Assembly: GCA_964556485.1 (NCBI GenBank)
Contig: CAZKVV010000004.1
Span: 57,618 to 121,617, forward strand
Source: an uncultured Pseudomonadales bacterium
GTDB lineage: Bacteria; Patescibacteriota; Microgenomatia; UBA1400; PJMF01
Direction: 5' to 3'
Length of the DNA: 64,000 bases
Shown here: piece after piece, positions 31,763 to 64,000 of the stretch
Position numbering within the stretch: position 1 is the first letter of the stretch
Layout of the letters: every line of letters starts with the position of its first letter
Position numbers and translations under genes: made by a program
The notes under the pieces: generated by a model
Told to the model about the DNA's origin: nothing
Seen by the model: only the letters and a program-made list of their open reading frames with translations
Database searches by the model: none

Positions 31763-33745
31763 CTAGTATACAATCACCCCTCCAGGGCTCACTTGATCCT
31801 GAATGATCATTTCCACAATTGGATTTTCTAGTTTTTCTTGAATAACTCGTTGCAAGCCTCGAGCTCCATACTTTGGATCATAAGCAGACTCTGCTAAAAA
31901 TTGTATTGTTTCAGGTTTCACTTCAAGTGTTATGCCGCGGGCATAAAGTTCGATTGCAAGCTTGCGAATTTGTAATTCTGCTATTCCAATTAGTGACTCT
32001 ACATCTAGGGCTTTAAATACTACGACATCATCAAAACGATTTAAGAACTCTATTCTGAAATAATCTTGCATTATTTCTTTGATTTCTTTTTCAATTTCAT
32101 ACTGTTGCTTTCCTTCTTCTATCAAGTCTAATATATCTTCTATACCTGCATTTGATGTAGCAATGATCATGGTATTGCGAAAATCTACCAACTTTCCTCT
32201 TCCATCCGTGAGCCTGCCGTCATCTAGAATTTGCAAAAAAACATCGAATACTTTTGGGTGTGCTTTTTCGATTTCATCAAGTAAAACTAGCGAGTAGGGT
32301 TTATTTTTTACAGGATTAGTAAGTTGTCCACCCTCTTCAAACCCTACATATCCTGGAGGTGCGCCAATGAGTCTTTGCACAGTATGTGGTTCAGAATATT
32401 CAGACATATCAATTCTAATCATATTTTCTTCATCACCAAAAATCTCATGTGCTAATACTTTTGCAAGTTCGGTTTTTCCAACTCCAGATGGACCTACTAA
32501 TAGAAATGAACCGATAGGCTTGTTCATTTTATTCAAACCTAAACGAGAGCGCTGAATGCTCCTTGCGATTTTGGTGATAGCATGGTTTTGTCCTTTTACT
32601 CTTTGTGAAATACGTTCGTCTAATTGCGAGAGGTCTTTTTTATCATAATCGGTTAAAGATGCGATTGGTATGTTTGCTTTTTGAGATACGACGACGCGCA
32701 CTAATTCAGGAGTAACTTCTGTTTCATTTTGATTTTTTGTAAAATGAGCAACTTCTTCCATGAGACTAATTCCTTTAGCAGGAAATGAAAGTTCGCTGAT
32801 GTGTTGTCTTGTTAACTTAATTATTTCTTCAAGTGAGTTGTCTGCGTACACAACTTGCGTTTGATTTGCAATGCGTTCTTGATGTACTGACAAAATTGCT
32901 CTAAGTTCGTTTTGGTCTGGCTCACTTAGTATTGAGACGTCAAATTTGGATATCATTCCCGGTTGTTCTGCTGCAAATTTTCGATAAGATGTTTCACTTG
33001 AGGTGGCAATGACTTGCGTTTTGTCAATTAAAAAACTAATTTGAGCAGTAGAAAATGAGAACAGTTCATCAAGGAAAAATAAACTCTTTCCCTCAGAAGA
33101 AGAAAGAATATTGAGCACTTGATCTTCAAGAGTGTCAGACCCTGGGAACAGTTGAAAGGTTTGTCGTGAGCCCGCAAGCCGCATCACAGTTTTAGCAAGT
33201 GCTGTTTTTCCAACACCAGCAGGCCCAATAATGAGTACGTTGTTTCTTTCACTCAAGTGCAGTACACGAAGAGCGTTGTTAATTTCTTGTTTTCTACCAA
33301 TAAAATCTACATCACTAGCGAAATCATGTAGTTTGTGCAAATTCTTCCTAAGTAATTCTTTAAGGACATTTGAATAATGTGAATCGAGTTTTTCTTGCTC
33401 TAATATTTTAAGGGCGGCTAAGAATACAACATGCTCGTCTGTATCAGGGCAAGATAATACTCTTCGTTGGATAGCGCATTCGTGTAAAAAGTCTTGATGA
33501 TATTTTTTTTCTTTTGTTAATCCAAATTGAAAGTGATTTTTTGGTTGATTTTGTTCGGAAATGATTCTTTCTAACTTTTCGGAAAGAGAATCAGTGGAAA
33601 AAAGAGATTGTAGAGTTGGGCTTGCGCTCAATGATTCCTGTGCAAAATGAGCAGCGAACTGCGCTTTTGATTGCCCAATCTCAAGTGTGGTATCTGAAAG
33701 TGAGTGAAAATAGTCCATAGTAAGTGAATAAATTATTATACGCAA
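31763..33745 (-). CDS. Clp/Hsp100-family AAA+ ATPase (ClpC/ClpA-like, two AAA modules, lacks canonical N-domain and ClpB middle domain)
   Basis: D1 Walker A GPAGVGKT and Walker B FFLDELF. D2 Walker A GPSGVGKT, Walker B LVLLDEIEKAH, sensor ATSN and the C-terminal GARGLQRVIQ motif. Confidence 0.8.
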   Translation of the reverse strand: MRIIIYSLTMDYFHSLSDTTLEIGQSKAQFAAHFAQESLSASPTLQSLFSTDSLSEKLERIISEQNQPKNHFQFGLTKEKKYHQDFLHECAIQRRVLSCPDTDEHVVFLAALKILEQEKLDSHYSNVLKELLRKNLHKLHDFASDVDFIGRKQEINNALRVLHLSERNNVLIIGPAGVGKTALAKTVMRLAGSRQTFQLFPGSDTLEDQVLNILSSSEGKSLFFLDELFSFSTAQISFLIDKTQVIATSSETSYRKFAAEQPGMISKFDVSILSEPDQNELRAILSVHQERIANQTQVVYADNSLEEIIKLTRQHISELSFPAKGISLMEEVAHFTKNQNETEVTPELVRVVVSQKANIPIASLTDYDKKDLSQLDERISQRVKGQNHAITKIARSIQRSRLGLNKMNKPIGSFLLVGPSGVGKTELAKVLAHEIFGDEENMIRIDMSEYSEPHTVQRLIGAPPGYVGFEEGGQLTNPVKNKPYSLVLLDEIEKAHPKVFDVFLQILDDGRLTDGRGKLVDFRNTMIIATSNAGIEDILDLIEEGKQQYEIEKEIKEIMQDYFRIEFLNRFDDVVVFKALDVESLIGIAELQIRKLAIELYARGITLEVKPETIQFLAESAYDPKYGARGLQRVIQEKLENPIVEMIIQDQVSPGGVIVY

Positions 33746-49499: not shown

Positions 49500-51389
49500 C
49501 TATGCTACTAGATCCCATTCTCTGAGTTTCTCAACATCTCCAGATTGAATTTTGAATAAACTAGCGTATAAATCGTCTCGCTTCATTAACTCTGCGTGAG
49601 TGCCTTGCTCAAGAATTTTTTGTTCTTTGAAAACAATAATATTATCAGCTCTTTGTATTGTTGAAAGCCTATGGGCAATAATAATTGCTGTCCGGTTGGA
49701 GAGCAATTTCTTTAATGCTTGCTGAATATACATTTCAGATTCTGAGTCTAAGGCGCTGGTAGCTTCATCTAAAATAATTATTTTAGGATCGCGAAGAACC
49801 GTGCGAGCTAGTGACAATCGCTGTCTTTGGCCGCCAGATAACTTTACACCGCGCTCACCAATAATGGTTTTCAATCCTTCGGGGAGTTGAGAAATAAACT
49901 CATCTGCATGTGCTACTTTGCAGGCATCCAACATTTCTGCTTCAGTAGCAGTAGGTTTTGCATATCGTAAATTTTCTTCAATTGTTTCGGCAAATAAATT
50001 TGAATCTTGGCTTACTAATCCTAAATGCAAACGCAAATCATGTTGCTTCATTTCTCTAATATCCACGCCATCAAGCATAATTGAACCTTCTGATACATCG
50101 AAAAATCTCATGATTAAACTGGCAATGGTAGATTTGCCAACTCCGGATGGACCAACTAAAGCAGTAGTTTTATTTGGTTCAATAGTAAATGAAATGTCAT
50201 CGAAAACTTTGAGATTTTCAATCCTAGATGGTTTAACTTCCCGTCCTTTATTAATTTCAGAGTCAAACTCAACAATTTGTTGTGGTTCATAAATAAAGGA
50301 AACATTTTTGAACTCAATTTTGCCTTCAACAGTTTTCAAAGTTACTGGCTTACTGGGGTCAGTAACACGAGGTTGGATGGAAATAATTTTCATGAAATCT
50401 TTAGCACCAATTTGTGCACGTTTAATTTCCCAAAAAATCCAGTTAATTTGCCAGAGTGGTCCACGAATGAGCTGAATTAGTCCGACAAGTAATATCAATG
50501 TTCCCACTGTAATATCTCCCAGCCATGTTAAATACACGATGTATGCGTACATGCTCCAACTGAAAGCTTCTAAAATTAGGTCAGCGCTCACAGCTTTAAA
50601 ACTGTTCCACTGCATTTGGGTACGTAGCGCTAAGTATTCTTTGAAAAAAGCAATGAATTTTTTACGTTCAAAATCTTCCGAACGAAAGGCTTTTATAAGC
50701 TGCATTGAACTAATGACTTCAAAGAAGTGACTATATTGTTCATCGTATAGTTTGTATTCTTGTCTTTCTAAGACCTCATCTTTCTTAAAACGCCAACGAC
50801 TAATGAGGGCGTAAGGAATAAAAGCTATAACAGTTAAAATGGCAACTCTCCATTCATGAAAAACCACAATGCTAAAAGCAACTACGGCAGTGGTAATACT
50901 TGGCAAAGAGTGAATTCCAAAATTACTGACTATTCCAGAGAGTCTGTTTACACCTCTGTCTAACTTGCTCATAACTTTGCCACTTGGCTGGTCATGAAAA
51001 AAATCGAGTGAGAGTCTCATTAAGTGATCAAAACCAATTTGTTTGAGATGCGATTCGAGTTTAACCGAAAATATGTTTGTTATAAAAAAGGAAGTCGCGT
51101 TGAGAATACTTTGAATGATTTTAACCGTAAGTAGGATAAGTAAGGTTGTAAAAATACTTGACCATGCAATACTCGCTTCTTTTTCCACTAAGATGTCGGT
51201 AATTTCTTTTGTAATAAATGGTTCGACCTGATTCAATCCTGCCATAACCACAATTAAAAGTGTTATTGTCAGTAACATTTTCCAATATGGTTTTGCAAAT
51301 GACATTGCACTAAGAAACATAGTTGTGATTTCCGCTATACAATTCCAAATAATGCTTGGAGTTATACCTACACTATACACTTGCTTCAC
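49500..51389 (-). CDS. ABC transporter, fused permease/ATPase (type I exporter, MsbA/bacteriocin-exporter-like, no C39 domain)
   Basis: Six TM helices plus NBD. Walker A GPSGVGKST, signature LSGGQRQRLSLAR, Walker B IIILDEATSALD. Confidence 0.85.
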   Translation of the reverse strand: MKQVYSVGITPSIIWNCIAEITTMFLSAMSFAKPYWKMLLTITLLIVVMAGLNQVEPFITKEITDILVEKEASIAWSSIFTTLLILLTVKIIQSILNATSFFITNIFSVKLESHLKQIGFDHLMRLSLDFFHDQPSGKVMSKLDRGVNRLSGIVSNFGIHSLPSITTAVVAFSIVVFHEWRVAILTVIAFIPYALISRWRFKKDEVLERQEYKLYDEQYSHFFEVISSMQLIKAFRSEDFERKKFIAFFKEYLALRTQMQWNSFKAVSADLILEAFSWSMYAYIVYLTWLGDITVGTLILLVGLIQLIRGPLWQINWIFWEIKRAQIGAKDFMKIISIQPRVTDPSKPVTLKTVEGKIEFKNVSFIYEPQQIVEFDSEINKGREVKPSRIENLKVFDDISFTIEPNKTTALVGPSGVGKSTIASLIMRFFDVSEGSIMLDGVDIREMKQHDLRLHLGLVSQDSNLFAETIEENLRYAKPTATEAEMLDACKVAHADEFISQLPEGLKTIIGERGVKLSGGQRQRLSLARTVLRDPKIIILDEATSALDSESEMYIQQALKKLLSNRTAIIIAHRLSTIQRADNIIVFKEQKILEQGTHAELMKRDDLYASLFKIQSGDVEKLREWDLVA

Positions 51390-53047
51390 CGCAAATCACA
51401 AAACATTTTATTTTTGAATGCTTCGTTTCTATCCCCCCAATATTTCTCGATAAAGTTGCGGAATTCTTTATCTTCTGAGTGTGAGAGACTATGCACTCTA
51501 AGGTTGCTTAATTCATTTAGTATAACAGGCAGCTGGGACGATAATCTCAGTCCAATATGTGATAAAACTATGCTCAATCGATATATTTCTTCTCTATTTC
51601 TAGATTCATAAGTATCAAGAACTAGATTTGTTTTGGCAGATAACAAGGTATGTAGTTGTTTTAAGTATTCAATCATATCTTTTTGCATTCTCGTTAGGGT
51701 TAATCTTTCAAGCCTTGCGAATTTTTCCTCAATTTCCAAGCATTTTTGTTGCAATTGTTCTTTAGCTAGGGCAACAAATTCGCCCAACTGATGGTTTGGA
51801 ATATCTAGGCTGCAAAAGTGAGCTAGGGTTTCTTCAAAATATTGAATTCCAAGCGCATCTCTAGAAATACCCACTAAAATTTCATCTAATCGATTCGTTC
51901 GTTCTTCATCATTCCATTCCGAGTCATCACCATAGATCTCACCAGAATTTGTCATAATAGGCTGCATAAAAATGATTTTATGATCAAGAAATCGTCGTAT
52001 TTCATTTCTACTTTCGTTTTTATCACTTTTAATTTTTAAGTACATCCATATTGAATCGAACATAAACAATCGACCATCTTGGATGGGCAATTCAAAATTT
52101 CCTGTTCGATTTATTGGTGTTGCTGCTACCATTGAAACTGAGCGAGAATTATCTGGTGAGAGAACAACCCCATCTAAACAAGCGGGTGAACCAATATCTT
52201 CCATTGCATCTTGTCGTTCTAAATTCTTTCCTACAAGCTGAAGACCTTTGCCACTTTTTGCATCTTTCGGTTTCACATCAATCATCTGTTTCATGAGAAA
52301 GTTAACATGATTTTTTGATAATCCACGTTCATATAATTTTTTTTCAATCAGCGCTAAACACACTTCTGCTCTTTGTGCATTGTGCCCACTAATGCTGAGG
52401 TTTATTTTGGTTGGACAAGAATAAGTTTCAATCGAAATGTCAACAATTCTTAGTGCCAAATCCACAAATACATCTTGAGAGCCAGTCGGTAAAGATGTAT
52501 TAATTGTTCTAGTCATCACGGGGCATTTGACTAATAGAAGTTGGTATACATCCAATGCAGTTTTCTCACCATCTCGATAATCTAAAAAATCGGTGTTGAA
52601 ATACGGATAGACTTTGTAAGGAGCATTGTCTTGAATTTGTTGTCCATATTTTGTAAAGAATGCTTGCATGGAATTAAAACTAAATGTATGAGTGATTCCC
52701 CTCGGTTTTTCGCCTAAGAAGCAATAACTACAACCGCCATTACATCCTCTGGTAAATTCAATTGCAACAATATTTTTTAAGATAAATTCTTTTGTTGAGT
52801 CGTCAAAATTTTCAAATGTTTTCAGTAGATCAATATGTTTTACGCGCTCTGCATTAGCACTGTGTTCTGGCTGTAAAAACCACATCTGTTCTAATGCAAC
52901 TCTAGCTTCATTTCGGACACCTTCGTCAAAACTTCCCGACATTGCCAGTAGATCTTGTTTACCAGCCTTTGGACTCACGCCCCACTCCATCATCATGAGG
53001 AATTCTGTTGCTAGTTGGGGGTTTACCTCACTGAGATCATTACACAT
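51386..53047 (-). CDS. Radical SAM enzyme (553 aa, non-SPASM), function unknown
   Basis: CxxxCxxC cluster motif in AIEFTRGCNGGCSYCFLG. 4-nt overlap with the ABC exporter gene. Confidence 0.7.
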   Translation of the reverse strand: MCNDLSEVNPQLATEFLMMMEWGVSPKAGKQDLLAMSGSFDEGVRNEARVALEQMWFLQPEHSANAERVKHIDLLKTFENFDDSTKEFILKNIVAIEFTRGCNGGCSYCFLGEKPRGITHTFSFNSMQAFFTKYGQQIQDNAPYKVYPYFNTDFLDYRDGEKTALDVYQLLLVKCPVMTRTINTSLPTGSQDVFVDLALRIVDISIETYSCPTKINLSISGHNAQRAEVCLALIEKKLYERGLSKNHVNFLMKQMIDVKPKDAKSGKGLQLVGKNLERQDAMEDIGSPACLDGVVLSPDNSRSVSMVAATPINRTGNFELPIQDGRLFMFDSIWMYLKIKSDKNESRNEIRRFLDHKIIFMQPIMTNSGEIYGDDSEWNDEERTNRLDEILVGISRDALGIQYFEETLAHFCSLDIPNHQLGEFVALAKEQLQQKCLEIEEKFARLERLTLTRMQKDMIEYLKQLHTLLSAKTNLVLDTYESRNREEIYRLSIVLSHIGLRLSSQLPVILNELSNLRVHSLSHSEDKEFRNFIEKYWGDRNEAFKNKMFCDLR

Positions 53048-53049
53048 TT

Positions 53050-53247
53050 TTATGCATCCCTCTTGATCATGCGCAGCTCAATCTCAGCCATTTTTTTTAT
53101 AGCATTCACCATTTGCCTAACGTATTCTTCTTGATTTGGGCAAAGCTTTTCTGTCTTCTGTTTAGGTTTGTAAGTTTGATTCATATAGTGTGATATCACA
53201 CTCTGATTTTTTTGAGAAAAATCGGAGTCATTTTTAGTTGTCCACAA
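53050..53247 (-). CDS. Small ORF (65 aa) translationally coupled to the radical SAM gene, possible precursor or accessory peptide
   Basis: TTG start 9 nt after a GAAGG. Its stop lies 2 nt before the rSAM ATG and the rSAM RBS AGAGGGA sits inside its 3' end. C-terminal amphipathic helix. Confidence 0.35.
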   Translation of the reverse strand: MWTTKNDSDFSQKNQSVISHYMNQTYKPKQKTEKLCPNQEEYVRQMVNAIKKMAEIELRMIKRDA

Positions 53248-53268: not shown

Positions 53269-56200
53269 TTAAGCAGCATCAATCAATTGTTCAACCCTCT
53301 GTCGTTGTTCATATTCGCCGATTTTTGGCAAAACAACTAGCTTCACGGCATTTTTAACACTTTTTTGATCAAACTCCTCTAAGTCGAAGATGATTTCTTC
53401 GGTTTCACGCTGAGTGAATACAAACTCTACGATGTCGTTTGATTCATTTCGTTGATAAGCGCGGTAAGCTTGACGTACTTTGTTTGCAATTCTTACTAAG
53501 AGGTCTAAGGCACTAATGGCTTGTAACCGCTCTGGCGTAGCGAATATATCTCCGCCATTAACCGCATCACCATTAACCGCATGGTTCCACAACTTCGTAA
53601 ACTCCTCCTTATTGAGTGTTCTCAAATCCTCAGCTCGTTGAGCAAGAATGAAGGCTTCGTCAGGACGTTTTCTGACCTTTGTGAATCCTTCAGTTGATTT
53701 GCCACTTGGGACTGTTTGAGTTTCAACATTAACTCGCTCGTACTCTCCATTAACTTTTTCAATCACGTTGTAAGGTTGGTAATCTACTTCTATCACTCTG
53801 GCACGGCTCTTAAACTCTTGTGCCAATGGCTGAGTACCAATATAGTTTTCTGGATTCATGGTGCCAATGAGCAAATTATCTGGATGTACTTCAATCTTTT
53901 GTCCGATGCCATTGGTGTTAAGCTCAACATAATCAGGGTCTTCACCTTGAGTGAAGTACAACGTGCGGCGGTAGTCAAAAACCGAGTTTAACATTTTAGT
54001 TACTTCTGCAGGCATGGCGTTAATTTCAATCAAGTTGATAATTACACCAGGTTTAGAGAGAGCTTCAGCAAACTTAGCGGGTACGCGATAAGTGCCTTTC
54101 TTGGGATCGAATCTGAACTCTGAAGTAAGATCCTCGGGGTCCATTGTTTTGCGACAGGGAATATTAACTACTTCGTAATTTGTTAAGGCTCCAAATGCGT
54201 CAATATTAAAGTCTTTGCCCACACCAGCGTCACCTTGCATGATTAGCAATCCTCTTGGAGTTCTCACTCGGTTCAGTTGTTTATCCAAACCCAACTGTGC
54301 TCGCAAGTTACGCGCCATATTACCGAGTACTTCTAAAGTGTATTCGGTCATCCTAAGTTCGCGACTAAGTGGAGGAACTTCACGTTTGGGATTAAAGTGC
54401 GTTTCCGCACGAGCTTTAGCTTTTTGATAACGAGGATCACTGTCGTCGACCCTCATATTCATGTAGACACCACTGCGCCAAATCCCAGCATTCTGACTCT
54501 CGAAAGCTAGTTCACCTTTATACTCAGCTCTTTGGTCGGCAGTAAGTTTTGAGAAGTCAATTTTCTTACCATCTGTACCCCAAACGATGGGCGTTACCCA
54601 TCCTGGAGAGAAGAGTATCTGGCGATCCCTGAATGTTGGGAATGCTTCACCAGCTAGTACTCTAACTTTCTCGCGCTCTATTGTTTTAGTCGCTTCTTTT
54701 TCTTGTTCGAACCGCTGAACTCTTTCCCGAAGGAGAGAAAGATACTGTTGATCATAATCAGCACGGCGACTCTCAGGAAGATGATTGATCAACTGTCTAA
54801 CACGTTCAGAGCGTGGATGGTTAAATGCCCATGCTTCAAGATTAATTCTACCCTCAGTCTCACCCAAGACCGCATCAATATCTTCCTGAAGTTCGCGTAA
54901 AGCCTCGGCTATCTCTCGAACAACTTCCTCAACTCTTGCTTCTTGTTCTCTTTTTCTTTCATCTGTTTTTGTCTGAATCTCTGAGCGTTTCTTCTGGCGG
55001 ATCTCACCCCAAGCAACTCTCAAGCGTCGTCTTTCTTTAGCATCGGTAACGAGATTTAATCTAGAGTTAAACCGTTCGACGACAGGATCTTTCTCCAACT
55101 CACTTAATTCGTTGATGCTCAGCGCTGGTTGAATAGCGGCTTCCATTTCCGACAACATCCCTTCCAAAGAAGTGACGAGTTGGCCTTGGAACTCCTTCTG
55201 TAATTCAACAATTCTTTCGGAGGAATGCTCAAGGCTTGTTTGAACTTTATTTCTCAAATCACCTTCTAGCACCTGCAGGTTTGCTGACTGCCGCATTTGA
55301 CGAACTTCTTCAAGCCTTTGCGCTACAGCAATGCTTTGTTCTATGGTTGTTGCCAGGCGGACACGTTGTTCCAAATCCTCAACAGCTTCCACTAAGACCT
55401 TTGCCTTAAACTCGTTTCTTCTTCTTTCAAAAGCTTGTTGCACTGTGGCAAAAGCTTCTGGGTACTGCTGATAGGGGTCTTTTTTTCTTAAAACTGAGAG
55501 CTTTGCCTCTAGTTTAAGCAGAGCTTGTTCATCGGTTGCTGACTGAACTAATGGTAAAAATTCTCCCTCTAATTTAACCTTCAGAGCTTCCTTAATATCG
55601 TCATTACTGACTGTTTTTTCTTGTTTTCTCTGTAGTGCAGTTACCTTTTCTTCGAGATCATTCGCAACAATATTATCTATGTCTAATTGTTCGATCTCTG
55701 AAAGTAGTGCCTTCATCTTCTGTCGTTGCTCTTCTAACATTCGCGACATTTGCTCGGGATCAAACTGAGCAAAGTTGGTGGTAATAATTCTTAGTTGGTT
55801 GTTGTCGTCAACAAAGTAGAGATTGCCAGCCTTATCTGCGCCAACATTACTTTTAATTCCTGCAAATGCGTAGTGTTTAGTCCGAGATTTCTTATCGAAA
55901 ATAGTTAGCTGATTATCACCATGCTTAACAATAAGAAAATTGCCTCGAGGATCCATAATTACTTGTTGGATATTGTCTACATCGAGCAAATCAATTGTTT
56001 CCGAATTAAGAAAACCGCTTTCCATGCCAGTTAGTGAAAACTTATGAAGTTTTCCATTCTCCGTAAAATAAACAGTATCACCATCTGAAGGATCGAGCAC
56101 AGGGCGAGGATCAGACAATGCTCTAATTTGTCGCTCAAAGCCACTTTCATTTTTGTTATAGATTCGGGTTATTGTCTGACCATCAGACACTGCATAAATA

Positions 56201-56895
56201 CCTGTTTTATTCTTAAATAGTGGCAAAACTTCGCTTGGAGATTTTTTCCAGTTTTTTAGGTCAGGTCCATCGACAGCCAGTGCAACCGCCTCACCCATAA
56301 TTTCGAGTGTGACAATATTACCATCCACCGACATTACTGTTGTTGGTCTTTTAATTAACTGCTCGTCACTAACCATACCGATATGATGATCTTTTAAATC
56401 TGAGGGTGATAAAAACCACGAATCAACAGTTTTTTTTTGACTCAAACTAGTCTGTTGAAGTATCTTAACTGCAAGTTTCTGAATTTCTTCTCTATCCTTT
56501 GACGCATCTAGCCCGGGAACAAATTGGGCAATTATTTTATTAAGATTCACTCCGCCAAATTGTTTAACAAAAGCCTCTGTTCCGATAAAATTTCTGTCGC
56601 TTGTTTTTAATGCTACTAAAGCTAATTGAATAATTTTTCGGCATGTAAAGCTTGTCCTGATGTTTGGAAAAATTTCTTCCAAACTCTTCATCTGACCCTG
56701 TGGAGAAATAACGACTATGTGAGAGCTAGTACTTTTTGAAGCAAAAACCCATCCATTTTCAAGAACAGCCACCGATGATAAGTCTGTGTTTGTTTCTGAT
56801 GCTGATGTCTTGAAATAATCTGGAGAATGAAGGATGGTCTGTGGTGCAGGAACTTTTGTTTCATGCAAATTTTTGTTAAATTCTGTCATATTCAT
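53269..56895 (-). CDS. Giant protein: beta-propeller-like N-terminal region, ~500-aa coiled coil, C-terminal dynein-related AAA_5 (MoxR-like) ATPase domain with degenerate Walker motifs
   Basis: LLIMQGDAGVGKD (Walker A with Lys-Asp), VIINLIEINAMPAEVTKMLNSVFDYRRTLYF (AAA_5 llDEiNla...r region with IE for DE), LLIGTMNPENY...SRARVIEV (sensor1/Arg). Long heptad-like E/R/K/Q-rich stretch at aa ~370-800. Confidence 0.65.
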   Translation of the reverse strand: MNMTEFNKNLHETKVPAPQTILHSPDYFKTSASETNTDLSSVAVLENGWVFASKSTSSHIVVISPQGQMKSLEEIFPNIRTSFTCRKIIQLALVALKTSDRNFIGTEAFVKQFGGVNLNKIIAQFVPGLDASKDREEIQKLAVKILQQTSLSQKKTVDSWFLSPSDLKDHHIGMVSDEQLIKRPTTVMSVDGNIVTLEIMGEAVALAVDGPDLKNWKKSPSEVLPLFKNKTGIYAVSDGQTITRIYNKNESGFERQIRALSDPRPVLDPSDGDTVYFTENGKLHKFSLTGMESGFLNSETIDLLDVDNIQQVIMDPRGNFLIVKHGDNQLTIFDKKSRTKHYAFAGIKSNVGADKAGNLYFVDDNNQLRIITTNFAQFDPEQMSRMLEEQRQKMKALLSEIEQLDIDNIVANDLEEKVTALQRKQEKTVSNDDIKEALKVKLEGEFLPLVQSATDEQALLKLEAKLSVLRKKDPYQQYPEAFATVQQAFERRRNEFKAKVLVEAVEDLEQRVRLATTIEQSIAVAQRLEEVRQMRQSANLQVLEGDLRNKVQTSLEHSSERIVELQKEFQGQLVTSLEGMLSEMEAAIQPALSINELSELEKDPVVERFNSRLNLVTDAKERRRLRVAWGEIRQKKRSEIQTKTDERKREQEARVEEVVREIAEALRELQEDIDAVLGETEGRINLEAWAFNHPRSERVRQLINHLPESRRADYDQQYLSLLRERVQRFEQEKEATKTIEREKVRVLAGEAFPTFRDRQILFSPGWVTPIVWGTDGKKIDFSKLTADQRAEYKGELAFESQNAGIWRSGVYMNMRVDDSDPRYQKAKARAETHFNPKREVPPLSRELRMTEYTLEVLGNMARNLRAQLGLDKQLNRVRTPRGLLIMQGDAGVGKDFNIDAFGALTNYEVVNIPCRKTMDPEDLTSEFRFDPKKGTYRVPAKFAEALSKPGVIINLIEINAMPAEVTKMLNSVFDYRRTLYFTQGEDPDYVELNTNGIGQKIEVHPDNLLIGTMNPENYIGTQPLAQEFKSRARVIEVDYQPYNVIEKVNGEYERVNVETQTVPSGKSTEGFTKVRKRPDEAFILAQRAEDLRTLNKEEFTKLWNHAVNGDAVNGGDIFATPERLQAISALDLLVRIANKVRQAYRAYQRNESNDIVEFVFTQRETEEIIFDLEEFDQKSVKNAVKLVVLPKIGEYEQRQRVEQLIDAA

Positions 56896-56919: not shown

Positions 56920-59235
56920 TTATTGGCCCTGCCTAAGTCTTTGACCTATTCTTCTCAAAATTGGCGTCATCACTCTCCTGGTTTCTATCGTCAGTTGACC
57001 CATGTTTTCGGGAATTATTACTCTATCTTCCCCAAAATATGTGTCTAAGCCAGCTTTTATTCGTTGCTTTTCATCCCGACTATTGGATAGACCAAAAGCG
57101 AAAAGCTCAAATACCTTTTTGATCTCGTCGATTTTTTCTACTAACGGTTGGCCGGTCAAACCACTGTTTGGTTCACCGTCTGTAAGAAACATAATAACAC
57201 CCTGTGAACCAGGAAATCTACGTCTTGAAGCGAGCAATTGTTCGTAGGCACTCACTACACCAGCTTCGTAGTTGGTACTACCATGCAATGATTTCGTTTG
57301 AGCAATGAGTTTGGCCTTAATTCGTTGTTCAGGAGAGGAGAATGGTTGATTAGGGTTTTTAAGCACTGATGAATTAGAACCCATAGTAATGATTCCAGAT
57401 GGAATGTTGTACTTCTCACACAACATCATCCACAAAATAAGATCTTTTAAAGATTCGTCTAACTTAGCGCCATGCATGCTGCCCGTAATATCGATAACAA
57501 ACCAAATGAATGTTTCAATTTTTTGCGATAATTCAATATCCTTTCTTGTATTAAAGCGACTGTCTCCAACGGGGAATTTACGAGCTGCCTGACGAGCGTC
57601 AGGTCTACCCGAATAGAAATAACCTTGCTGAGTCATGATCCACTCACGAGGGAATGCTTTCATCACTTGCTGATCCATCGATCTGAAATCAGCCATCATT
57701 TCGCGTTCCAACTCCTTGTATCGATCGTAGTTACCCTCTTCATCTTCTCTAAAACCAGCCTCTCTCATTTCGCGAAGTTTTCGTTCTTTTTGCTCGCGAG
57801 CTTTTTGTTTGGCTTCCTGTTTTTGTTGCTCAGCTTGTTGTTGTTGTATGTCGTGTTGTTCACGCTGTTGCTCTTCTTTCTCAAACTCTTCCAATTCCTT
57901 CTGGGCTTTTTCCACTTCTTTTTGATCAGCTGTTTGAATCTTTGGCTTGAATTCACCAGTTTCTTCATCTTGCTCCATCTGTATCATCTGTGGTGCTTCT
58001 TTATTAAGCTTTTCACTTTGTTTTTGATCGGTTTGTTTGCGAGCATCTTCTTCAAGTTTTTCTAATGCTTGAGGATTAAGATTTTTCAAAAAAAACTCCA
58101 GTTGCTCGCGTGTTTCAGTAGAGAGTTCATTCAAATCCATCTCACACTCACTTGTTTCTGGATTTTCTCCTTGGCTTCCCGGTCGTTGCTCATCAGGTTG
58201 AGCGCTAGATTGCCCCTCTGACTGTTGAGAACTTTGCAAGCCGCTTTGTCGTCCGGATTGTGATTGTTTAGATTGGCTAGAGCTTTGGCTTCCTTGCTGC
58301 ATTTCCTGTTTGATCTTTTGTTTCAAATCTTCAGGAAGTTGAGGTTGTCCGCTGCCACCCCGTCCATCTTGACCCTCATTGCCTTGCCGACCCTCCATGG
58401 CTTGTTGAGCCATATTCCTTTTTACTTGATCCTCAACTTCTTCCTTCTCGAGGTCTCTTACTTGCGGCCAAATCTCTTCAGAAAATGTGTGGAAATTTTC
58501 CAGTGCAGACTTACTGGCGTAAAAACGATCAAGTGCTGGTCGCACTTTATCCATAACTGCTTGTACTCGCTCGTCTATACTAGGCAAGTCTTGGCCTGTT
58601 AACCAGTAATTGATAGCGTTAACACCAAACTGACGTGGTAGGGGATCATGAGGAATCTGGGTGGCAATTTCCTTAAGTTTACGCAAGTACCCACGTTTTA
58701 GATCTTCAAGCGCCGCTTGGGATTCTCCGGCAGACATGGCGTTAACCCAACCATCTTCGGGACCATTAAGCAGCGATCCATAGGTCGATGGTAGGAATCC
58801 TTGTTCCTTAGCCAATCTCATCCCTTGAAAAAAGAATTTGAAATCTGAGTGAGCAGCGTGGGCAGCCTCGTGTCTTGTTTTCCTGGTAATTTCTATCTCA
58901 GGATCACGGTATAAATCGTTCTTTCTAAAAGTGATGAGATTGGGAACTAAAGCCTGAGGAGGCAGGTGATCTAGATTGTCAATTTTACCACAAATATATG
59001 CATCAACAGCTTGAGCGTATTCTGGGTCAATACCACAAGTCCATGGTCCTTCGCCATCTAGTGCCGCAATCTTAAGGTCATAACGACCACTGAAAACCCT
59101 TGAAAGCCATGAAATCTGTTTCATTACCCTTCGAATTTCTTCCGGCGATCGCCTTTCATCATCTAATAGTTTGTTTTCAGATATAGATGAAGGGCTAATA
59201 GCCTCACCCGGCATACGGGAGATTTTTTCAGACAT
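56920..59235 (-). CDS. vWA (MIDAS) domain protein with N-terminal HExxH zincin-like domain and central Q/E/K-rich coiled-coil linker (DUF2201-like architecture)
   Basis: HEAAHAAH near aa 110. About 250 aa of low-complexity QQ/EE/K repeats. C-terminal FVIDITGSM (DxTxS MIDAS) ... FLTDGEPN vWA fold. Confidence 0.7.
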   Translation of the reverse strand: MSEKISRMPGEAISPSSISENKLLDDERRSPEEIRRVMKQISWLSRVFSGRYDLKIAALDGEGPWTCGIDPEYAQAVDAYICGKIDNLDHLPPQALVPNLITFRKNDLYRDPEIEITRKTRHEAAHAAHSDFKFFFQGMRLAKEQGFLPSTYGSLLNGPEDGWVNAMSAGESQAALEDLKRGYLRKLKEIATQIPHDPLPRQFGVNAINYWLTGQDLPSIDERVQAVMDKVRPALDRFYASKSALENFHTFSEEIWPQVRDLEKEEVEDQVKRNMAQQAMEGRQGNEGQDGRGGSGQPQLPEDLKQKIKQEMQQGSQSSSQSKQSQSGRQSGLQSSQQSEGQSSAQPDEQRPGSQGENPETSECEMDLNELSTETREQLEFFLKNLNPQALEKLEEDARKQTDQKQSEKLNKEAPQMIQMEQDEETGEFKPKIQTADQKEVEKAQKELEEFEKEEQQREQHDIQQQQAEQQKQEAKQKAREQKERKLREMREAGFREDEEGNYDRYKELEREMMADFRSMDQQVMKAFPREWIMTQQGYFYSGRPDARQAARKFPVGDSRFNTRKDIELSQKIETFIWFVIDITGSMHGAKLDESLKDLILWMMLCEKYNIPSGIITMGSNSSVLKNPNQPFSSPEQRIKAKLIAQTKSLHGSTNYEAGVVSAYEQLLASRRRFPGSQGVIMFLTDGEPNSGLTGQPLVEKIDEIKKVFELFAFGLSNSRDEKQRIKAGLDTYFGEDRVIIPENMGQLTIETRRVMTPILRRIGQRLRQGQ

Positions 59236-59862: not shown

Positions 59863-62800
59863 CTAAATCAGATAAAATGTGTGTACTGTCTTGGAACTTG
59901 AAATCTGGAATGAATGACTGATTCTTGCTTCAGGTTTATAAAATCTTAAGGCTAAATACTTATCAACTCCCTCGCCAACTCGATTTGTTAATGGATGCCA
60001 ACTGTCTTGTTCAGGAATCATCACCTGAGAGATTCCATTGTCTGCTGCGATCTGCATAACCATATCAACCATCTGATCGCATAAAACTGCAGTATTTGTC
60101 GAAGAAATAATACTAGAAGATGGATTGAAGCCTCTGAAAATCAAAGTTGGTTGATTATCAACGGTTGTTTGATATCCTTGAATATTCCCTACAACAATAC
60201 CTTGATTATTGACTAAATTAACATGAAAATGATCTGGTCGGTGATATAACTCTATATCATGAGCCGTACACACTCCTGCAGTAGTCTTCGCAAAATATGA
60301 GGCTGCGTTTTTTGTAACATATCCAGTTAATATTAAGGTTGGGTCAACCTCTTGCCCCGCTTTATCTCTAAGTACAACTTTTCCTAATTCTGTTTCTACA
60401 CGCTTCCTCAGTCCTTTTGATCCAGAAAACATTGTTCTTTCAGTCATGAATGCTAAAAGTTTGGCTAAGTGCTGGCGTTTTTCAACAACGGACTTATTTT
60501 CGCGTAAACCAGAAATAATTGATGCAAAAGAGGCTTTTTCCTCTTCTCTCATTATCCTTGATCCACCAATATTTTTCTCCAAAGTTGCAAGTTTTTTCTC
60601 AGTCAACATACTGAGCAAACGGTCAGACACCATTGGATTTTCATCTAAAAACTTTGCGACTGCTTCACCTGCATTATCTTTATAATAAACCCCAAATAGT
60701 TCTTTAGCTTTTGATAAAAGGTTATTTTTATCAGCAACTTGAGAAGTGTCTCCAGTCATTTTTTCTGTATATTGATCAATTTTATCTCCGAGCGATACAC
60801 GCAAGCATGCAATCACTTCTTGTAGAGAGGATGTAAATAAATCCTCAGTTTTGGTTGCACCTGCCTCGGTTAATAATCGAGTCCAGCCTTTTAAAGCCAT
60901 CGCAGTATCACCACCAGAGGCAATGTAATCAGACGTTTGTTCGTTTCTAAATATGACTTTAACTAAATTAACAACTCCTTCGTCAACTGGTTTGTCCGCA
61001 CTTCTTAATTCAGCTACTTTTTCTTTTGAAGCAATGCTTCCTCGATATCCACTCTCTCGAAAATGCATTCCACTAATATCATCACAATGATCACCAACTC
61101 TAGCTAGCTCTAACCTAACAGAATTAACATCTGTACTTGGAAATGTTAAGCAAATCATTTCAGCCATGAAGTCTATGCCACTACTTCCACTCGTTAAATC
61201 CATAAGTGGCACATTCCTATGAACATTTTTACGGAATGCTTTTACCCTATCCCTGTGATTTTCCCTAGAAAGCTCATCTGCTTCTAATATGTAACCCCTA
61301 ACTAATGATGGTGTGATATTTCTAAACTCTTCCATTGCTTCCAAAAGACGCTCTGTGTATAAGGGGTTAGTCATGATTCTAGCAACATCTTCGCCTGAAA
61401 TTGTCTGAAACGTTGTTACACAGCTATTAAAACTAGTGGGTTTGGTGTTTAGCATCCTTTTAAAGAATCTGGCGTACCCATCTTGTTCTAGGTTAGCTTG
61501 TAACCAATCTAATGACGACTTCGTTGTATAAAAAACATTTTGACTATTCAAGCCAATTGTCGCCCCCAATTGATGTAAGTAAGCTGGCCGAACTTGAGAC
61601 AAAATTTGATTGGTTTGAGGATTTTGTACTAAACTCCTAAATCGGTCGAAATCTGTTAATTTCCAGCCTGCGGACATCATGTGAGCCGACAAAACTCCGT
61701 TTTGCTCCCAATATGAGGCTCTATCTGGAATTAAAGCATCATATTTAGGATCGTTTGATTGGTCATGAAATCTTGCCAATGTTTGGATATATTCGACTGA
61801 TAATTCAAACCCATACGCAACTGCAAATGGCGCTATAAATGAATTACTCAGATTCCCGTTTTCAGCTAAGTCTTGTGATAGTGCATCATACACGTCATTA
61901 AAATGACGCGCACACATGTCTTTATCATTTTGTATTCCAATTATTAAACTTGCTCTAATTTCGCGTTTTTCAGCATTGTTGAATGTGGAAGCATCAAGAT
62001 TGTAGTCGGCGAGAAAACTTTGTGGCTGTTCTTTGGCAATTAGTCCCACTAAAGCAGATGTGGCTTTATGATCATCGACAAGAGTATTAAATATTTCTTT
62101 TTTGCCTATTAGTACTTTTTTAAGATATCCTTTCGCTCCCTTCCAATATCTCCAGTATTTCTGTGTTTCTTCTGGCATTTGTTCTAATGCCTGCTCAGTG
62201 ACCAAAGAGGCAAGAGTGTCTAACTCAACAGTCTGGCTTGTGGACAATTCTGTCAATAAATGTTCAGACGCCGATCCATTTACGACATACGTATTAATTT
62301 CTTCTCTTCTTTCTAGTATGAATCCATGCAACTCGTCCTCGTCATGTTGTCGCCAAAAATCCCAAAAGACCTTTCCTTCAGCCGTCATTCCTGCCAACGC
62401 TTCGTCGGAAATTAATGATGTAATTAATCTGTCGCCGACCCGCAATCTGTCTGATACTAAATTCTCTAATAATAGCTCCGTCGCCACACCATTAACAACC
62501 AATAAATCAAAATTCGATCTTTGCTTGATTAGATAATCATGCAAAACGTCAGCATCATGTTTCTTCCAGAAGCCCCAAAATTTTTCCCCTTCATCGCCCA
62601 TGGATTCCAAAGCGTCCTTTGTGATCATCCATGTCGCTTCTCTGAATATATTTTCTTTATTTCTATTACGAATAGTGTCACGACCAGATGATTCGTCTGC
62701 ACCTGAAATTAATTCATCGAGCCATTTTTGGGTTGGCACACCTTTTTCATTGACATAAGAGTCTATGTTGAAATCAGCTTCTCCCCGATGCCTAGTTAAT

Positions 62801-64000
62801 AATTCTATATAAGCATTAATCCCCGATGTTTTTGCTTTATTTCGACCATAATGTAGCTGAGGATTTGCATAAGAATCTGCCTGATGGTCAATGAGTAAAA
62901 ATAGCCTTTGACCGTAACTCTCATTACTGGCTAACTCGCATAAAAACCCCAAGGAAACTTTTCGATTGCCTCGGTTGTCTTCCATTTGAACACTAAATTC
63001 GGCGTCTTGATTTAGTTGATGAGCAAATTGCCACACGCATTGTCTACCAGTATCTTTGAGTCCAAAATACTCTCTAAGATCATTTGCCGATATTACGTTT
63101 TGACAATATAAACTTGGGATTTCAACTCCAACTCGTTTCAGTTCTGAAACCAATCTTTGCCTATCATCGTCGTTAACACCTGATAAAGTTTTAAATATTT
63201 CAACCGTCTGGCTGTTAAACGTTGCAAGAGGATTATTTAGTTCTTCCCTCAGTCTCAATATTTCATCATTAGGAATGGTTGCGAGTATTTTTAGTGTTAA
63301 TAAATCAGAGTTTGAGCGCACACAAAAACCGTCTGATGTTAATAATTTTTGTCTTTGAGCAATTATCTCGCGCTTTTTATATATACTAAGCCATTCATCT
63401 GGATTACGAAGAATAGTATCCCACTGTTCGCCTTGATTATTATTGTTTTGAAGTACGATACTAACAAACGCTCTATCTAGTCCCATCTGTCTTACTTCTG
63501 GTCTCAATAGTGTTTGTACTCTACCTTTCATTTCTTCAATAGTTATTTTTTCCTGGCCTATAACAGTTATCACATTCAACTTTGATGATTTTAAGTCATC
63601 AGATATCTCAGACAATGGTTTGAACACTTCCCGTACTTCTTCCAAAGAGAAATCCTTTAAAGAATCACCAATATCCTGCCATAAGTAATATCTGCTTAGC
63701 GCCCCATCTCCGCCGTCTTGATCCCTCGTCAAAGTTGTGCCTGTTAATTGCGTTATTAATAAAGATTTTTCTAATCTATCTGGATCAGATTTCCTAACAT
63801 AGTCTTTAAAATCGTATCCATCCGCACTCAAAGGCATTTTCCGACCGTATTTAGCTAGAACTCTAGCATTTTGTCTTAATGAGTCGTTTGCGCAAACAGC
63901 TTTAAAGCTAGCTTGATGATTTTCTACAAAAACTTTCGGGTTTGCGGAATCTGTAGTGCTGCGATCATTAAAATGAAATCCCCAACTTACATCAAACCCG
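59863..64000 (-). CDS. Giant hypothetical protein (over 1324 aa) with three internal ~65-aa repeats. Reading frame stays open to the window edge, so it is possibly N-terminally truncated here
   Basis: First ATG at 63837, but the frame has no stop from 63838 to 64000. Repeats contain (F/Y)WxFWK ... VVNGxAxELL motifs. No TM or signal peptide. Confidence 0.6.
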   Translation of the reverse strand, partial: GFDVSWGFHFNDRSTTDSANPKVFVENHQASFKAVCANDSLRQNARVLAKYGRKMPLSADGYDFKDYVRKSDPDRLEKSLLITQLTGTTLTRDQDGGDGALSRYYLWQDIGDSLKDFSLEEVREVFKPLSEISDDLKSSKLNVITVIGQEKITIEEMKGRVQTLLRPEVRQMGLDRAFVSIVLQNNNNQGEQWDTILRNPDEWLSIYKKREIIAQRQKLLTSDGFCVRSNSDLLTLKILATIPNDEILRLREELNNPLATFNSQTVEIFKTLSGVNDDDRQRLVSELKRVGVEIPSLYCQNVISANDLREYFGLKDTGRQCVWQFAHQLNQDAEFSVQMEDNRGNRKVSLGFLCELASNESYGQRLFLLIDHQADSYANPQLHYGRNKAKTSGINAYIELLTRHRGEADFNIDSYVNEKGVPTQKWLDELISGADESSGRDTIRNRNKENIFREATWMITKDALESMGDEGEKFWGFWKKHDADVLHDYLIKQRSNFDLLVVNGVATELLLENLVSDRLRVGDRLITSLISDEALAGMTAEGKVFWDFWRQHDEDELHGFILERREEINTYVVNGSASEHLLTELSTSQTVELDTLASLVTEQALEQMPEETQKYWRYWKGAKGYLKKVLIGKKEIFNTLVDDHKATSALVGLIAKEQPQSFLADYNLDASTFNNAEKREIRASLIIGIQNDKDMCARHFNDVYDALSQDLAENGNLSNSFIAPFAVAYGFELSVEYIQTLARFHDQSNDPKYDALIPDRASYWEQNGVLSAHMMSAGWKLTDFDRFRSLVQNPQTNQILSQVRPAYLHQLGATIGLNSQNVFYTTKSSLDWLQANLEQDGYARFFKRMLNTKPTSFNSCVTTFQTISGEDVARIMTNPLYTERLLEAMEEFRNITPSLVRGYILEADELSRENHRDRVKAFRKNVHRNVPLMDLTSGSSGIDFMAEMICLTFPSTDVNSVRLELARVGDHCDDISGMHFRESGYRGSIASKEKVAELRSADKPVDEGVVNLVKVIFRNEQTSDYIASGGDTAMALKGWTRLLTEAGATKTEDLFTSSLQEVIACLRVSLGDKIDQYTEKMTGDTSQVADKNNLLSKAKELFGVYYKDNAGEAVAKFLDENPMVSDRLLSMLTEKKLATLEKNIGGSRIMREEEKASFASIISGLRENKSVVEKRQHLAKLLAFMTERTMFSGSKGLRKRVETELGKVVLRDKAGQEVDPTLILTGYVTKNAASYFAKTTAGVCTAHDIELYHRPDHFHVNLVNNQGIVVGNIQGYQTTVDNQPTLIFRGFNPSSSIISSTNTAVLCDQMVDMVMQIAADNGISQVMIPEQDSWHPLTNRVGEGVDKYLALRFYKPEARISHSFQISSSKTVHTFYLI

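Follow-up and report, generated by a model that had tools for sequence, protein, structure and literature searches.

The closest described systems are the CbbQ-CbbO and NorQ-NorD pairs, in which an ATPase of ~260-380 aa, with GK[ST] and DE motifs in canonical form (CbbQ, NorQ), is encoded adjacent to a partner that carries a VWA domain with its MIDAS site. RavA-ViaA is another MoxR-VWA chaperone pair of this type. In NorD a long linker joins the N-terminal domain to a VWA domain at the C-terminus, and the mechanism described for NorQ-NorD places a VWA finger in the pore; the H2 insert, a beta-hairpin in helix 2, was defined as a feature in the same study (PMC13036017). The AAA_5 family also includes midasin/Rea1 and dynein, with six concatenated modules per chain and canonical GKT/DE in the active ones, and midasin has, besides its AAA_5 modules, a helical linker and an acidic region as well as a MIDAS domain. 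MoxR-vWA core pairs have in addition been described in ternary systems, one class of which includes beta-propellers (Kaur, Burroughs, Iyer, Aravind 2020; PMC7159879).

The Walker A Ser/Thr that follows the lysine (K+1) and the Walker B Asp are normally a hydrogen-bonded, strictly conserved pair, described as the sole strictly conserved, catalytically capable residues found in every P-loop NTPase; the K+1 side chain is a direct protein ligand of Mg2+, and substitution of either residue normally kills activity (PMC9599734). Natural replacements of the K+1 Ser/Thr occur in torsinA and E. coli DnaC, which carry Asn and are very weak, partner-dependent and switch-like ATPases (Kozlova et al. 2022, PMC9599734, suppl. 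Fig. S7). The K+1 Asn of torsinA preserves the hydrogen bond to the Walker B Asp, and Mg-ATP is bound in the crystal structure (PMC9599734). No described precedent for Asp at K+1, or for its combination with loss of the Walker B Asp, was found in a limited literature search.

The ATPase gene studied here lies in a 64,000-nucleotide stretch of DNA (the window) as a single open reading frame of 1208 aa. An earlier note on this DNA had given its size and coordinates correctly and had missed that it is on the minus strand; the plus-strand reading of the same interval is riddled with stops. The corresponding NCBI protein (P0001) is identical but 2 codons shorter at the start, with 1206 aa. The features of the gene are as follows.

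53269..56895, minus strand: whole ATPase open reading frame, 1208 aa, built from a propeller-like domain, a helical region, a small beta domain and, with its lid, a MoxR-class AAA+ module
55777..56838, minus strand: N-terminal beta-rich, propeller-like domain, aa 20-373 (AlphaFold2 secondary structure and family conservation)
54688..55752, minus strand: all-alpha E/L/R/Q-rich region, aa 382-736 (AlphaFold2 helices, composition, heptad test)
54463..54669, minus strand: small beta domain between the helical region and the ATPase, aa 743-811 (AlphaFold2 strands, model residues 735-803)
53668..54249, minus strand: AAA+ alpha/beta core, MoxR/CbbQ/NorQ-like, aa 883-1076 (Pfam, CbbQ alignment, AlphaFold2, Foldseek)
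54211..54234, minus strand: Walker A GDAGVGKD, aa 888-895 (CbbQ alignment, family comparison)
54019..54042, minus strand: Walker B strand IINLIEIN, aa 952-959 (CbbQ alignment, family comparison)
53848..53868, minus strand: sensor 1 IGTMNPE, aa 1010-1016, with Asn1014 (CbbQ alignment; invariant in the family)
53794..53811, minus strand: KSRARV, aa 1029-1034, with Arg1031 (CbbQ alignment; invariant in the family)
53275..53610, minus strand: C-terminal helical lid, aa 1096-1207 (AlphaFold2 and family conservation)

The ATPase module was identified as AAA_5 (PF07728; AAA+ clade 7, MoxR-like) by Pfam over aa 884-1031 (E=2.1e-13, with 50.9 bits where the curated cut-off is 22), and the same profile matched all 40 family members tested. 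Structure was modelled with AlphaFold2 as a monomer without ligand from 40 family sequences, giving a mean pLDDT of 79 with values above 90 across most of the ATPase module. The best PDB fold matches of this model by Foldseek were CbbQ and NorQ (E 2e-11 to 1e-9), namely CbbQ 6l1q_A (E=2e-11, target TM 0.77) and NorQ 9qh4/9qh9 (E ~1e-9 to 1e-10, target TM 0.77-0.80), followed by dynein and Rea1 modules; giant multi-AAA_5 proteins were likewise next among the HMMER matches. CbbQ and NorQ are the closest matches in both sequence and fold, with an identical motif order, and a DxRR motif preceding sensor 1 is common to CbbQ and this ATPase. A hairpin at the helix-2 insert position, after the Walker A helix and before the Walker B strand, was predicted at aa ~925-939, its strands covering aa 925-930 and 934-939 (917-922 and 926-931 in model numbering), and two clade-specific insertions occur in the AAA+ core at aa 984-997 and aa 1045-1072. 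The module is a genuine member of the MoxR/CbbQ-type AAA+ class, as the earlier note had proposed. With midasin/Rea1 and dynein it has in common that the second Walker A residue is Glu or Asp (GE.G.GK); in the present system, however, each chain has one AAA_5 module and a different protein supplies the MIDAS domain.

Within the nucleotide site, Lys894 of Walker A is retained while Asp895 occupies the K+1 position, and in Walker B Ile956 replaces the Asp while the catalytic Glu957 is retained, so that neither the canonical GxxGxGK[S/T] nor hhhhDE is present. The HMMER alignment to CbbQ placed GKD on GKS, LIE on LDE, NP on NP and SR on QR, and a canonical GK[ST] sought elsewhere in the 1208-aa protein was not found. 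The two substitutions had been noticed before, and the alignment shows that their register was not shifted. The sensor-1 TMNP and the following arginine region, previously reported as kept, also held, as Asn1014 and Arg1031 align with CbbQ and are invariant in the family. Arg1031 is presumed to be the arginine finger by homology with the conserved Arg of CbbQ and the motif order of NorQ, and the lid contributes two sensor-2 candidates, the invariant Arg1141 and the near-invariant Arg1163.

The ATPase is distinguished from CbbQ and NorQ, apart from its GKD and IE motifs, by ~880 additional N-terminal residues that form the propeller-like domain, a helical arm and the small beta domain. The N-terminal domain was modelled as ~20 strands arranged in 4-strand groups, with pLDDT of 84-92 at aa ~270-375 and a helical insert at aa 72-168, and its last blades carry the family motifs DPxGNFL, GNIYFxD and LRxxxTNF. 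Profile matches to solved propellers (lactonase, PQQ) were weak (E ~0.03). The WD/propeller-like repeats of the earlier note are beta-rich and propeller-like in the model, but neither WD40 nor any other Pfam family matched this domain, and across relatives WD40 gave sub-threshold matches only, in 2 of 40 relatives and in an Aquificaceae protein (locus L006). The adjoining region, previously described as a coiled coil of ~500 aa rich in E, R and K, is indeed all-alpha but spans ~355 aa and is composed of E 15%, L 12%, R 10% and Q 9%. One ~60-residue helix with heptad periodicity was located inside it at aa ~619-689, and a crude heptad test was clearly positive at aa 639-689 only. In the small beta domain that follows, the family consensus shows the conserved motifs FG..FP.F and W.P.

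An exhaustive HMMER search recovered 421 cluster representatives of this family at E<=1e-3, including 60 at E<=1e-30. Most were 1,100-1,300 aa with the same architecture and a C-terminal ATPase, and conservation spanned the full length of the proteins including the N-terminal propeller-like domain and the helical region, which is at odds with the earlier suggestion that these are unusual additions. Across 40 full-length members K894, E957, R977, N1014, R1031 and R1141 were invariant. The K+1 residue was Asn or Asp in nearly all members and GKT occurred in one member only. The departure from the canonical motifs is no accident, being retained in one relative of 86% and one of 54% identity, with variant forms family-wide. 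As judged from these alignments, Asn/Asp after the Walker A lysine is a hallmark of the whole family and not a lineage-specific decay. The earlier reading of an impaired or regulatory ATPase keeps its slow or regulatory component, for which torsinA and DnaC provide precedent, and loses the sense of degeneration.

The residues at K+1 and at the Walker B Asp position were found to co-vary. Among 121 sequences the pairs were (N,D) in 83, (D,N) in 24, (D,G) in 3, (D,I) in 2 and (D,V) in 1, with Asp at K+1 accompanied by a non-acidic Walker B residue in 30 sequences in all. Exactly one carboxylate was present across the two positions in 116 of the 121, the exceptions being (D,D) in 2, (N,N) in 2 and (N,T) in 1. 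On a quick neighbour-joining tree of ~160 columns each character required 6 Fitch steps, and 4 of the 6 fell on the same branches where simple arithmetic gives a chance expectation of ~0.15 given ~240 branches. The majority GKN with DE is the same solution as that of torsinA and DnaC, which belong to other AAA+ clades and are not close homologues, making this a resemblance in mechanism and not in homology. Unlike those proteins, with Asn and a Walker B Asp, the present ATPase has Asp895 and Ile956. Within the small clade to which it belongs, a hydrophobic residue (I/V) occupies the Walker B Asp position, and the amide-carboxylate pair of the family is therefore not kept there.

It could be argued from these replacements that the protein is a pseudo-ATPase that does not hydrolyse ATP, and perhaps does not bind Mg-ATP, its sole role being that of a scaffold for a VWA protein and the N-terminal domains, through oligomerisation or docking. 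Equivalent replacements abolish activity in tested NTPases and torsinA and DnaC, which carry Asn naturally, have hardly any activity (PMC9599734), and since single replacements normally abolish activity, the lack of both residues here counts against an active site, as does the hydrophobic Walker B position in this clade. A dead site would however be expected to drift, yet the Walker A Gly/Lys, the Walker B Glu, the sensor-1 Asn, the arginine-finger position and the lid arginines were invariant in relatives down to ~20% full-length identity, and the two deviant positions co-vary on at least 4 branches, which argues for selection on the site. This combination of invariance and covariation indicates a nucleotide site that is probably maintained and selected rather than dead, and we consider the pseudo-ATPase unlikely. 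An active site with an altered metal or nucleotide preference, for example for Mn2+ or Ca2+, or with tight ADP binding, could follow from a carboxylate or amide in place of the metal's hydroxyl ligand. Because K+1 is a direct Mg2+ ligand (PMC9599734), Asp or Asn changes the ligand chemistry, and the one-carboxylate covariation fits a charge constraint around the metal. The sequence is nevertheless silent on base specificity and torsinA with its K+1 Asn still binds Mg-ATP, and such a shift in preference appears rather improbable.

Beside the ATPase gene is a gene for a VWA protein. The description in the earlier note did not include this adjacent partner, which is the main functional clue at the locus.

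56920..59235, minus strand: VWA partner gene, 771 aa (Pfam VWA E=2e-7, ortholog alignment, PDB profile matches to VWA domains)
53200..53228, no strand assigned: palindromic hairpin with 13-bp stem, terminator-like (consensus scan only)

The partner gene is on the same strand and ends 24 nt upstream of the ATPase start; adjacency of the two genes is shared with CbbQ-CbbO and NorQ-NorD. At its N-terminus the protein has a conserved HExxH domain (HEAAH, aa 122-126); an acidic linker rich in Q, S and E leads from there to a VWA domain at the C-terminus, an order like that of NorD. Its MIDAS residues (D582-I-T584-G-S586, T654, D686) form an intact motif with one conservative Ser-to-Thr change, and the ortholog alignment showed MIDAS sequences of DISGT and DNSGS together with conservation of the HExxH, whose domain has a transglutaminase/papain-like core in a sister subfamily. 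The VWA-ATPase pairing recurs at the majority of related loci: L001, L002/L003, L012 and L013, and L004 with reversed gene order. No VWA gene was found within 8 kb of the Aquificaceae member at L006, and the pairing is therefore not universal. A terminator-like hairpin is located ~40 nt downstream of the ATPase stop, and this suggests that the pair may be transcribed separately from the downstream genes.

Neighbours of the pair differed at every related locus. No recognisable client enzyme gene was found near the pair, where the neighbours were ORFans, a radical-SAM-like protein, an ABC exporter and others; Rubisco and NOR client genes are absent nearby, unlike in CbbQ-CbbO and NorQ-NorD, and here the partner carries the HExxH domain. 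A large ORFan of 1324 aa lies upstream on the same strand across a gap of 627 nt. Given that MoxR-vWA pairs form the core of ternary conflict systems and that one class of these has beta-propellers (Kaur et al. 2020, PMC7159879), an anti-phage or conflict role might be considered, with the 1324-aa ORF as a variable third component or effector. Against this, PADLOC matched 0 of 5 proteins, bpMoxR (PF20030) was unmatched at E<=0.01, and the known class fuses the propeller to the vWA protein (PMC7159879) whereas here it is on the ATPase. The pair is also without a VMAP, iSTAND or FtsH third component or any conserved third gene, a counterpart of the 1324-aa ORF was absent beside the pair at L001, L002, L003, L012 and L013 where the neighbours were housekeeping genes, and phage records and viral contigs yielded no member of the family. 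A conflict system of this type is highly improbable.

The reading we favour, to which we assign a probability of roughly 60% in view of the observed fold, motifs, family, covariation and gene pairing, is that of a slow, partner-gated MoxR-VWA remodelling pair with a co-varying, non-canonical ATP site. The ATPase would be made together with the upstream VWA/MIDAS protein and, by analogy with NorQ-NorD, CbbQ-CbbO and midasin, would form a ring that engages this partner and whose nucleotide-driven movements remodel a protein client. The MIDAS site would hold this client, perhaps together with the propeller, and the HExxH domain of the partner might then process it. One carboxylate would be kept beside the Mg2+ site, here on Walker A as Asp895 with Ile956 at the Walker B position, and we infer that Asp895 takes part in Mg2+ ligation. 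The site would still bind and hydrolyse nucleotide, probably at a slow rate and as a partner-gated switch. It is possible, and we propose it only tentatively, that Asp895 performs both jobs, that of the Ser/Thr in Mg2+ ligation and that of the Walker B Asp as buried carboxylate and proton acceptor. If so, the family would include functional P-loop ATPases whose catalytic carboxylate has changed place, and the repeated switches from N/D to D/N, D/G and D/I would be natural reciprocal swaps that probe the Ser/Thr-Asp proton-trap proposal.

The family has replaced the K+1 Ser/Thr throughout, and the carboxylate has moved from Walker B to Walker A several times. If members hydrolyse ATP they represent an alternative active-site solution and a ready-made set of natural mutants for the study of mechanism, and if they do not, a large conserved switch-type or pseudo-AAA+ class exists within the MoxR group. 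The family is uncharacterised and unannotated, and can be recognised by the signature GxxGxGK[N/D] within a fixed four-part architecture; it is newly defined here together with a VWA partner bearing a peptidase-like domain. Its members, at present annotated just as 'AAA family ATPase' or 'hypothetical protein', belong to little-studied lineages: the records bear the names of Patescibacteria, Bdellovibrionales and Aquificaceae MAGs, and UGA-recoded genomes are probably among the sources as well.

The interval 53269-56895 held one long ORF of 1208 aa on the minus strand, while the plus-strand reading was rejected as it contained stops throughout. The NCBI protein P0001 (1206 aa, encoded on a 125-kb contig) was identical to this ATPase, with a start two codons later. 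All of the motifs quoted in the earlier note were present in the minus-strand ORF, at the following positions (ORF numbering):

aa 888-895, GDAGVGKD
aa 952-959, IINLIEIN
aa 1010-1016, IGTMNPE
aa 1029-1034, KSRARV

Neither a shifted register nor a missing AAA fold was found. Pfam AAA_5 matched significantly at aa 884-1031 (E=2.1e-13, well over the curated cut-off), and in a HMMER alignment with the solved MoxR-class ATPase CbbQ the GKD lay on GKS, LIE on LDE and NP on NP, all in register. In the same comparison the KSRAR arginine aligned with a conserved CbbQ arginine and a DYRR motif was common to both proteins. A scan of the whole protein gave no canonical GK[ST] elsewhere. The non-canonical motifs that had been described therefore stand as an observation. 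The protein had the profile, fold, helix-2 insert, sensor and arginine of a MoxR-class AAA+ ATPase and lacked both the canonical Walker A and the Walker B Asp.

Structure prediction from the single sequence gave a pLDDT of 38, and a usable model was obtained from an alignment of 40 full-length relatives (mean pLDDT 79; above 90 across most of the ATPase module). ORF numbering equals model numbering plus 8. The layout of the model was:

aa 20-373, beta-rich N-terminal domain with a helical insert at aa 72-168
aa 382-736, all-alpha region
aa 743-811, small beta domain
from aa 883, AAA+ alpha/beta core with a hairpin at aa 925-939
up to the C-terminus, helical lid

The hairpin was at the position of the helix-2 insert, which is the defining trait of MoxR-like AAA+ proteins (PMC13036017). 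Foldseek comparison of the model with the PDB returned CbbQ (6l1q, E=2e-11) and many chains of NorQ, another MoxR-class ATPase (E of about 1e-9 to 1e-10, target TM 0.74-0.82), followed by dynein and Rea1 modules. The N-terminal repeats had been called WD/propeller-like. The strands of this domain were arranged in groups of four like propeller blades and its family profile matched lactonase-type and PQQ-type propellers weakly (E of about 0.03); no WD40 or other Pfam family matched the domain, and nothing was found for the N-terminal part in NCBIfam, PADLOC or a relaxed Pfam search. Because the propeller matches were weak and a WD40 match was absent, "propeller-like" is a reasonable but unproven description of the predicted domain, and "WD" is unsupported. 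The coiled coil of about 500 aa that had been proposed was too long, as the helical region covered about 355 aa in the model. This region was rich in E, L, R and Q, and only aa 639-689 stood out in a crude heptad test, overlapping the model's one helix of 60 residues. A more fitting description would be a helical arm in which a single segment is coiled-coil-like.

An exhaustive HMMER search with the C-terminal 460 aa against 1.84 billion cluster representatives identified 421 proteins at E<=1e-3; 132 of them passed E<=1e-10 and 60 passed E<=1e-30. Most were 1,100-1,300 aa long with the ATPase match at the C-terminus. Word-indexed searches, whether with the full protein or its C-terminal 460 aa, yielded nothing but the ATPase itself or one fragment, and an alignment-based homology search returned mostly short fragments. 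Forty full-length members could be aligned end to end, the N-terminal domain and helical region included, and a genome-contig scan found at least two relatives in Aquificaceae and at least three distant ones. Organism labels of members included Patescibacteria-group, Bdellovibrionales and Aquificaceae MAGs. The source annotations were only "AAA family ATPase", "MoxR-like ATPase" or "hypothetical protein", and no NCBIfam or PADLOC model matched the window ATPase. Its own clade was rare, with three representatives in the HMMER search (100%, 86% and 54% identity) and no close relatives in metagenome scans. A phage or mobile origin was rejected, since the AAA_5 proteins in phage records and viral contigs were all distant (24-28% identity). 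The family is without annotation and consists of giant MoxR-like ATPases that have a VWA partner and in which the P-loop pair is systematically non-canonical and co-varying.

The family Walker A consensus was G[E/D/H]xG[T/V]GK[N/D], with Asn or Asp at K+1, the residue after the Walker A lysine, in nearly all members and GKT in one. The residues at K+1 and at the Walker B Asp position were counted in the 121 family sequences covering both motifs.

Residues at K+1 and at the Walker B Asp position (number of sequences)
Asn at K+1, Asp in Walker B: 83
Asp at K+1, Asn in Walker B: 24
Asp at K+1, Gly in Walker B: 3
Asp at K+1, Ile in Walker B: 2
Asp at K+1, Val in Walker B: 1
Thr at K+1, Asp in Walker B: 1
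Asn at K+1, Glu in Walker B: 1
Ser at K+1, Glu in Walker B: 1
Asp at K+1, Asp in Walker B: 2 (exception)
Asn at K+1, Asn in Walker B: 2 (exception)
Asn at K+1, Thr in Walker B: 1 (exception)

Exactly one carboxylate was present over the two positions in 116 of the 121 sequences. In the Asp/Asn state the amide and the carboxylate are swapped between the positions, while the window ATPase (Asp895 with Ile956; Val at the Walker B position in the 86% relative) retains the carboxylate alone, relocated to Walker A. On a neighbour-joining tree built with both columns left out, which is quick and approximate, each character required six parsimony steps and in four cases both changed on the same branch, against about 0.15 coincident steps expected by chance (about 240 branches; our own arithmetic). 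The joint changes were:

1, the clade of the window ATPase (Asp with Ile, Val or Asn)
2, the GCGKD clade (Asp/Gly)
3, a single sequence (Asp/Asn)
4, the large GHAGTGKD/GDTGTGKD clade (Asp/Asn)

These placements would correspond to three to five independent joint events.

The Ser/Thr after the Walker A lysine ligates Mg2+ and forms a hydrogen bond to the Walker B Asp, and replacement of either residue abolishes activity (Kozlova et al., PMC9599734). Eight residues were invariant in the 40 full-length members (K894, E957, R977, N1014, Y1018, R1031, E1080 and R1141; ORF numbering), and with the other catalytic residues unchanged throughout and the two deviant positions varying together, the ATP site would appear to be maintained by selection. 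Natural exceptions at K+1 are already known: nucleotide monophosphate kinases have Gly, and torsinA and E. coli DnaC have Asn. The latter two show very low ATPase activity and are possibly nucleotide-dependent switches, and the Asn of torsinA retains the hydrogen bond to the Walker B Asp (PMC9599734, suppl. Fig. S7). Their solution is the majority state of the family (GKN with DE), here inside a MoxR-class module, whereas the window ATPase has Asp895 and Ile956. In a limited literature search no described precedent was found for a natural GKD Walker A or Asp at K+1. The most likely reading is nucleotide binding with slow, partner-controlled hydrolysis; less probably, the module is a dead scaffold or the ATP site has a changed metal preference. 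Specialists in P-loop proteins would find the active-site pattern surprising, and the family is a source of natural swap mutants.

The partner gene, 56920-59235, encoded 771 aa on the same strand and ended 24 nt upstream of the ATPase. Its C-terminal VWA domain was detected by Pfam (E=2e-7) and by PDB profile matches to VWA domains, with MIDAS residues D582-x-T584-x-S586, T654 and D686. A long acidic linker rich in Q, S and E was also present, as was a conserved N-terminal domain with HExxH (RHEAAHAAHSDFK); this domain had no match in NCBIfam, PADLOC or Pfam, the last searched with relaxed settings. A VWA gene (720-995 aa) directly followed by the ATPase gene was found in loci L001, L002/L003, L012 and L013, and the contig of member P0018 had a 915-aa gene at the partner's position without a Pfam hit on record. 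Four of the examined partners retained HExxH. The GHAGTGKD subfamily, which is more distant (locus L004, 3887-7072 and 98-3856), had the reversed order, ATPase then VWA, and the 1061-aa VWA protein had a transglutaminase/papain-like core in place of the HExxH domain. From HExxH in some loci and this core in the subfamily, the VWA partner would often seem to carry a protein-modifying or peptidase-like domain. The other neighbours of the pair varied and were mostly housekeeping genes. A shorter member (935 aa, GDAGVGKN and FDEIN) was located in an Aquificaceae MAG (JBKBHW010000008.1; locus L006, 6042-8849) with no VWA gene within 8 kb. Its N-terminus had weak WD40-type matches, and it was flanked by a radical SAM gene upstream and by CO dehydrogenase and pyruvate:ferredoxin oxidoreductase genes downstream.

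In NorQ-NorD a VWA finger enters the hexamer pore, and the linker of the partner is stretched by movement that ATP drives (PMC13036017). The ATPase probably assembles into a ring and engages the VWA protein, by analogy with NorQ-NorD, CbbQ-CbbO and midasin; a client would be held by the MIDAS site and possibly also by the propeller-like domains on the helical arms, and the HExxH domain of the partner may process it. Membership in the MoxR-vWA ternary conflict systems was rejected as the third component, PF20030 and PADLOC hits were all absent; there the propeller is on another protein, whereas here the ATPase carries the propeller-like domain.

The genes surrounding the pair were:

49500-51389, minus strand, MsbA/HlyB-like ABC exporter gene, its start overlapped 4 nt by the 553-aa gene
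51386-53047, minus strand, 553-aa protein with a CNGGCSYC (CxxxCxxC) motif
53200-53228, perfect-looking hairpin with a 13-bp stem flanked by T/A runs, between the ATPase and the next gene
59863-63837, minus strand, 1324-aa ORFan

The 1324-aa ORF upstream (gap 627 nt) and the radical-SAM-like and ABC genes downstream (gap 220 nt with the hairpin) were rejected as system components because they were not conserved beside the pair in other loci and were also set off by gaps. Read on either strand, the hairpin resembles a terminator. The 553-aa protein matched radical-SAM (E 7e-5) and PoyD-like epimerase (E 0.02) models weakly and could form a peptide maturation and export pair with the exporter. 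The ORFan had no Pfam, NCBIfam or PADLOC match and included three tandem repeats of about 65 aa each (EGEKFWGFWKKHD..., EGKVFWDFWRQHD..., ETQKYWRYWKGAKG...) around aa 410-600; its exact sequence had no entry in the protein collection, probably because another start is used in the public annotation. A 213-aa neighbour was without a match in NCBIfam, PADLOC or the relaxed Pfam search. A 660-aa protein (31763-33745, minus strand) had a ClpB-type second AAA module (AAA_2 and ClpB_D2-small), and its N-terminal P-loop region scored best with AAA_16/nSTAND3-type models, not Clp D1, an unusual combination. GC content was about 39%, many large ORFs were without a family match, and all of the window proteins looked up represented their own 90%-identity clusters, eight of nine being singletons. 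The window seems to come from a sparsely sampled lineage.

At least twelve family representatives (P0082, P0092, P0095, P0098, P0111, P0118, P0119, P0121, P0126 and others) had Trp at conserved-Gly columns, such as WEAWVGKN for GEAGVGKN, in up to six of six such columns. This would be the expected signature of UGA=Gly genomes (genetic code 25, Gracilibacteria/Absconditabacteria) translated with UGA=Trp, and if so, those database proteins are mistranslated and the family is present in recoded candidate-phyla bacteria.
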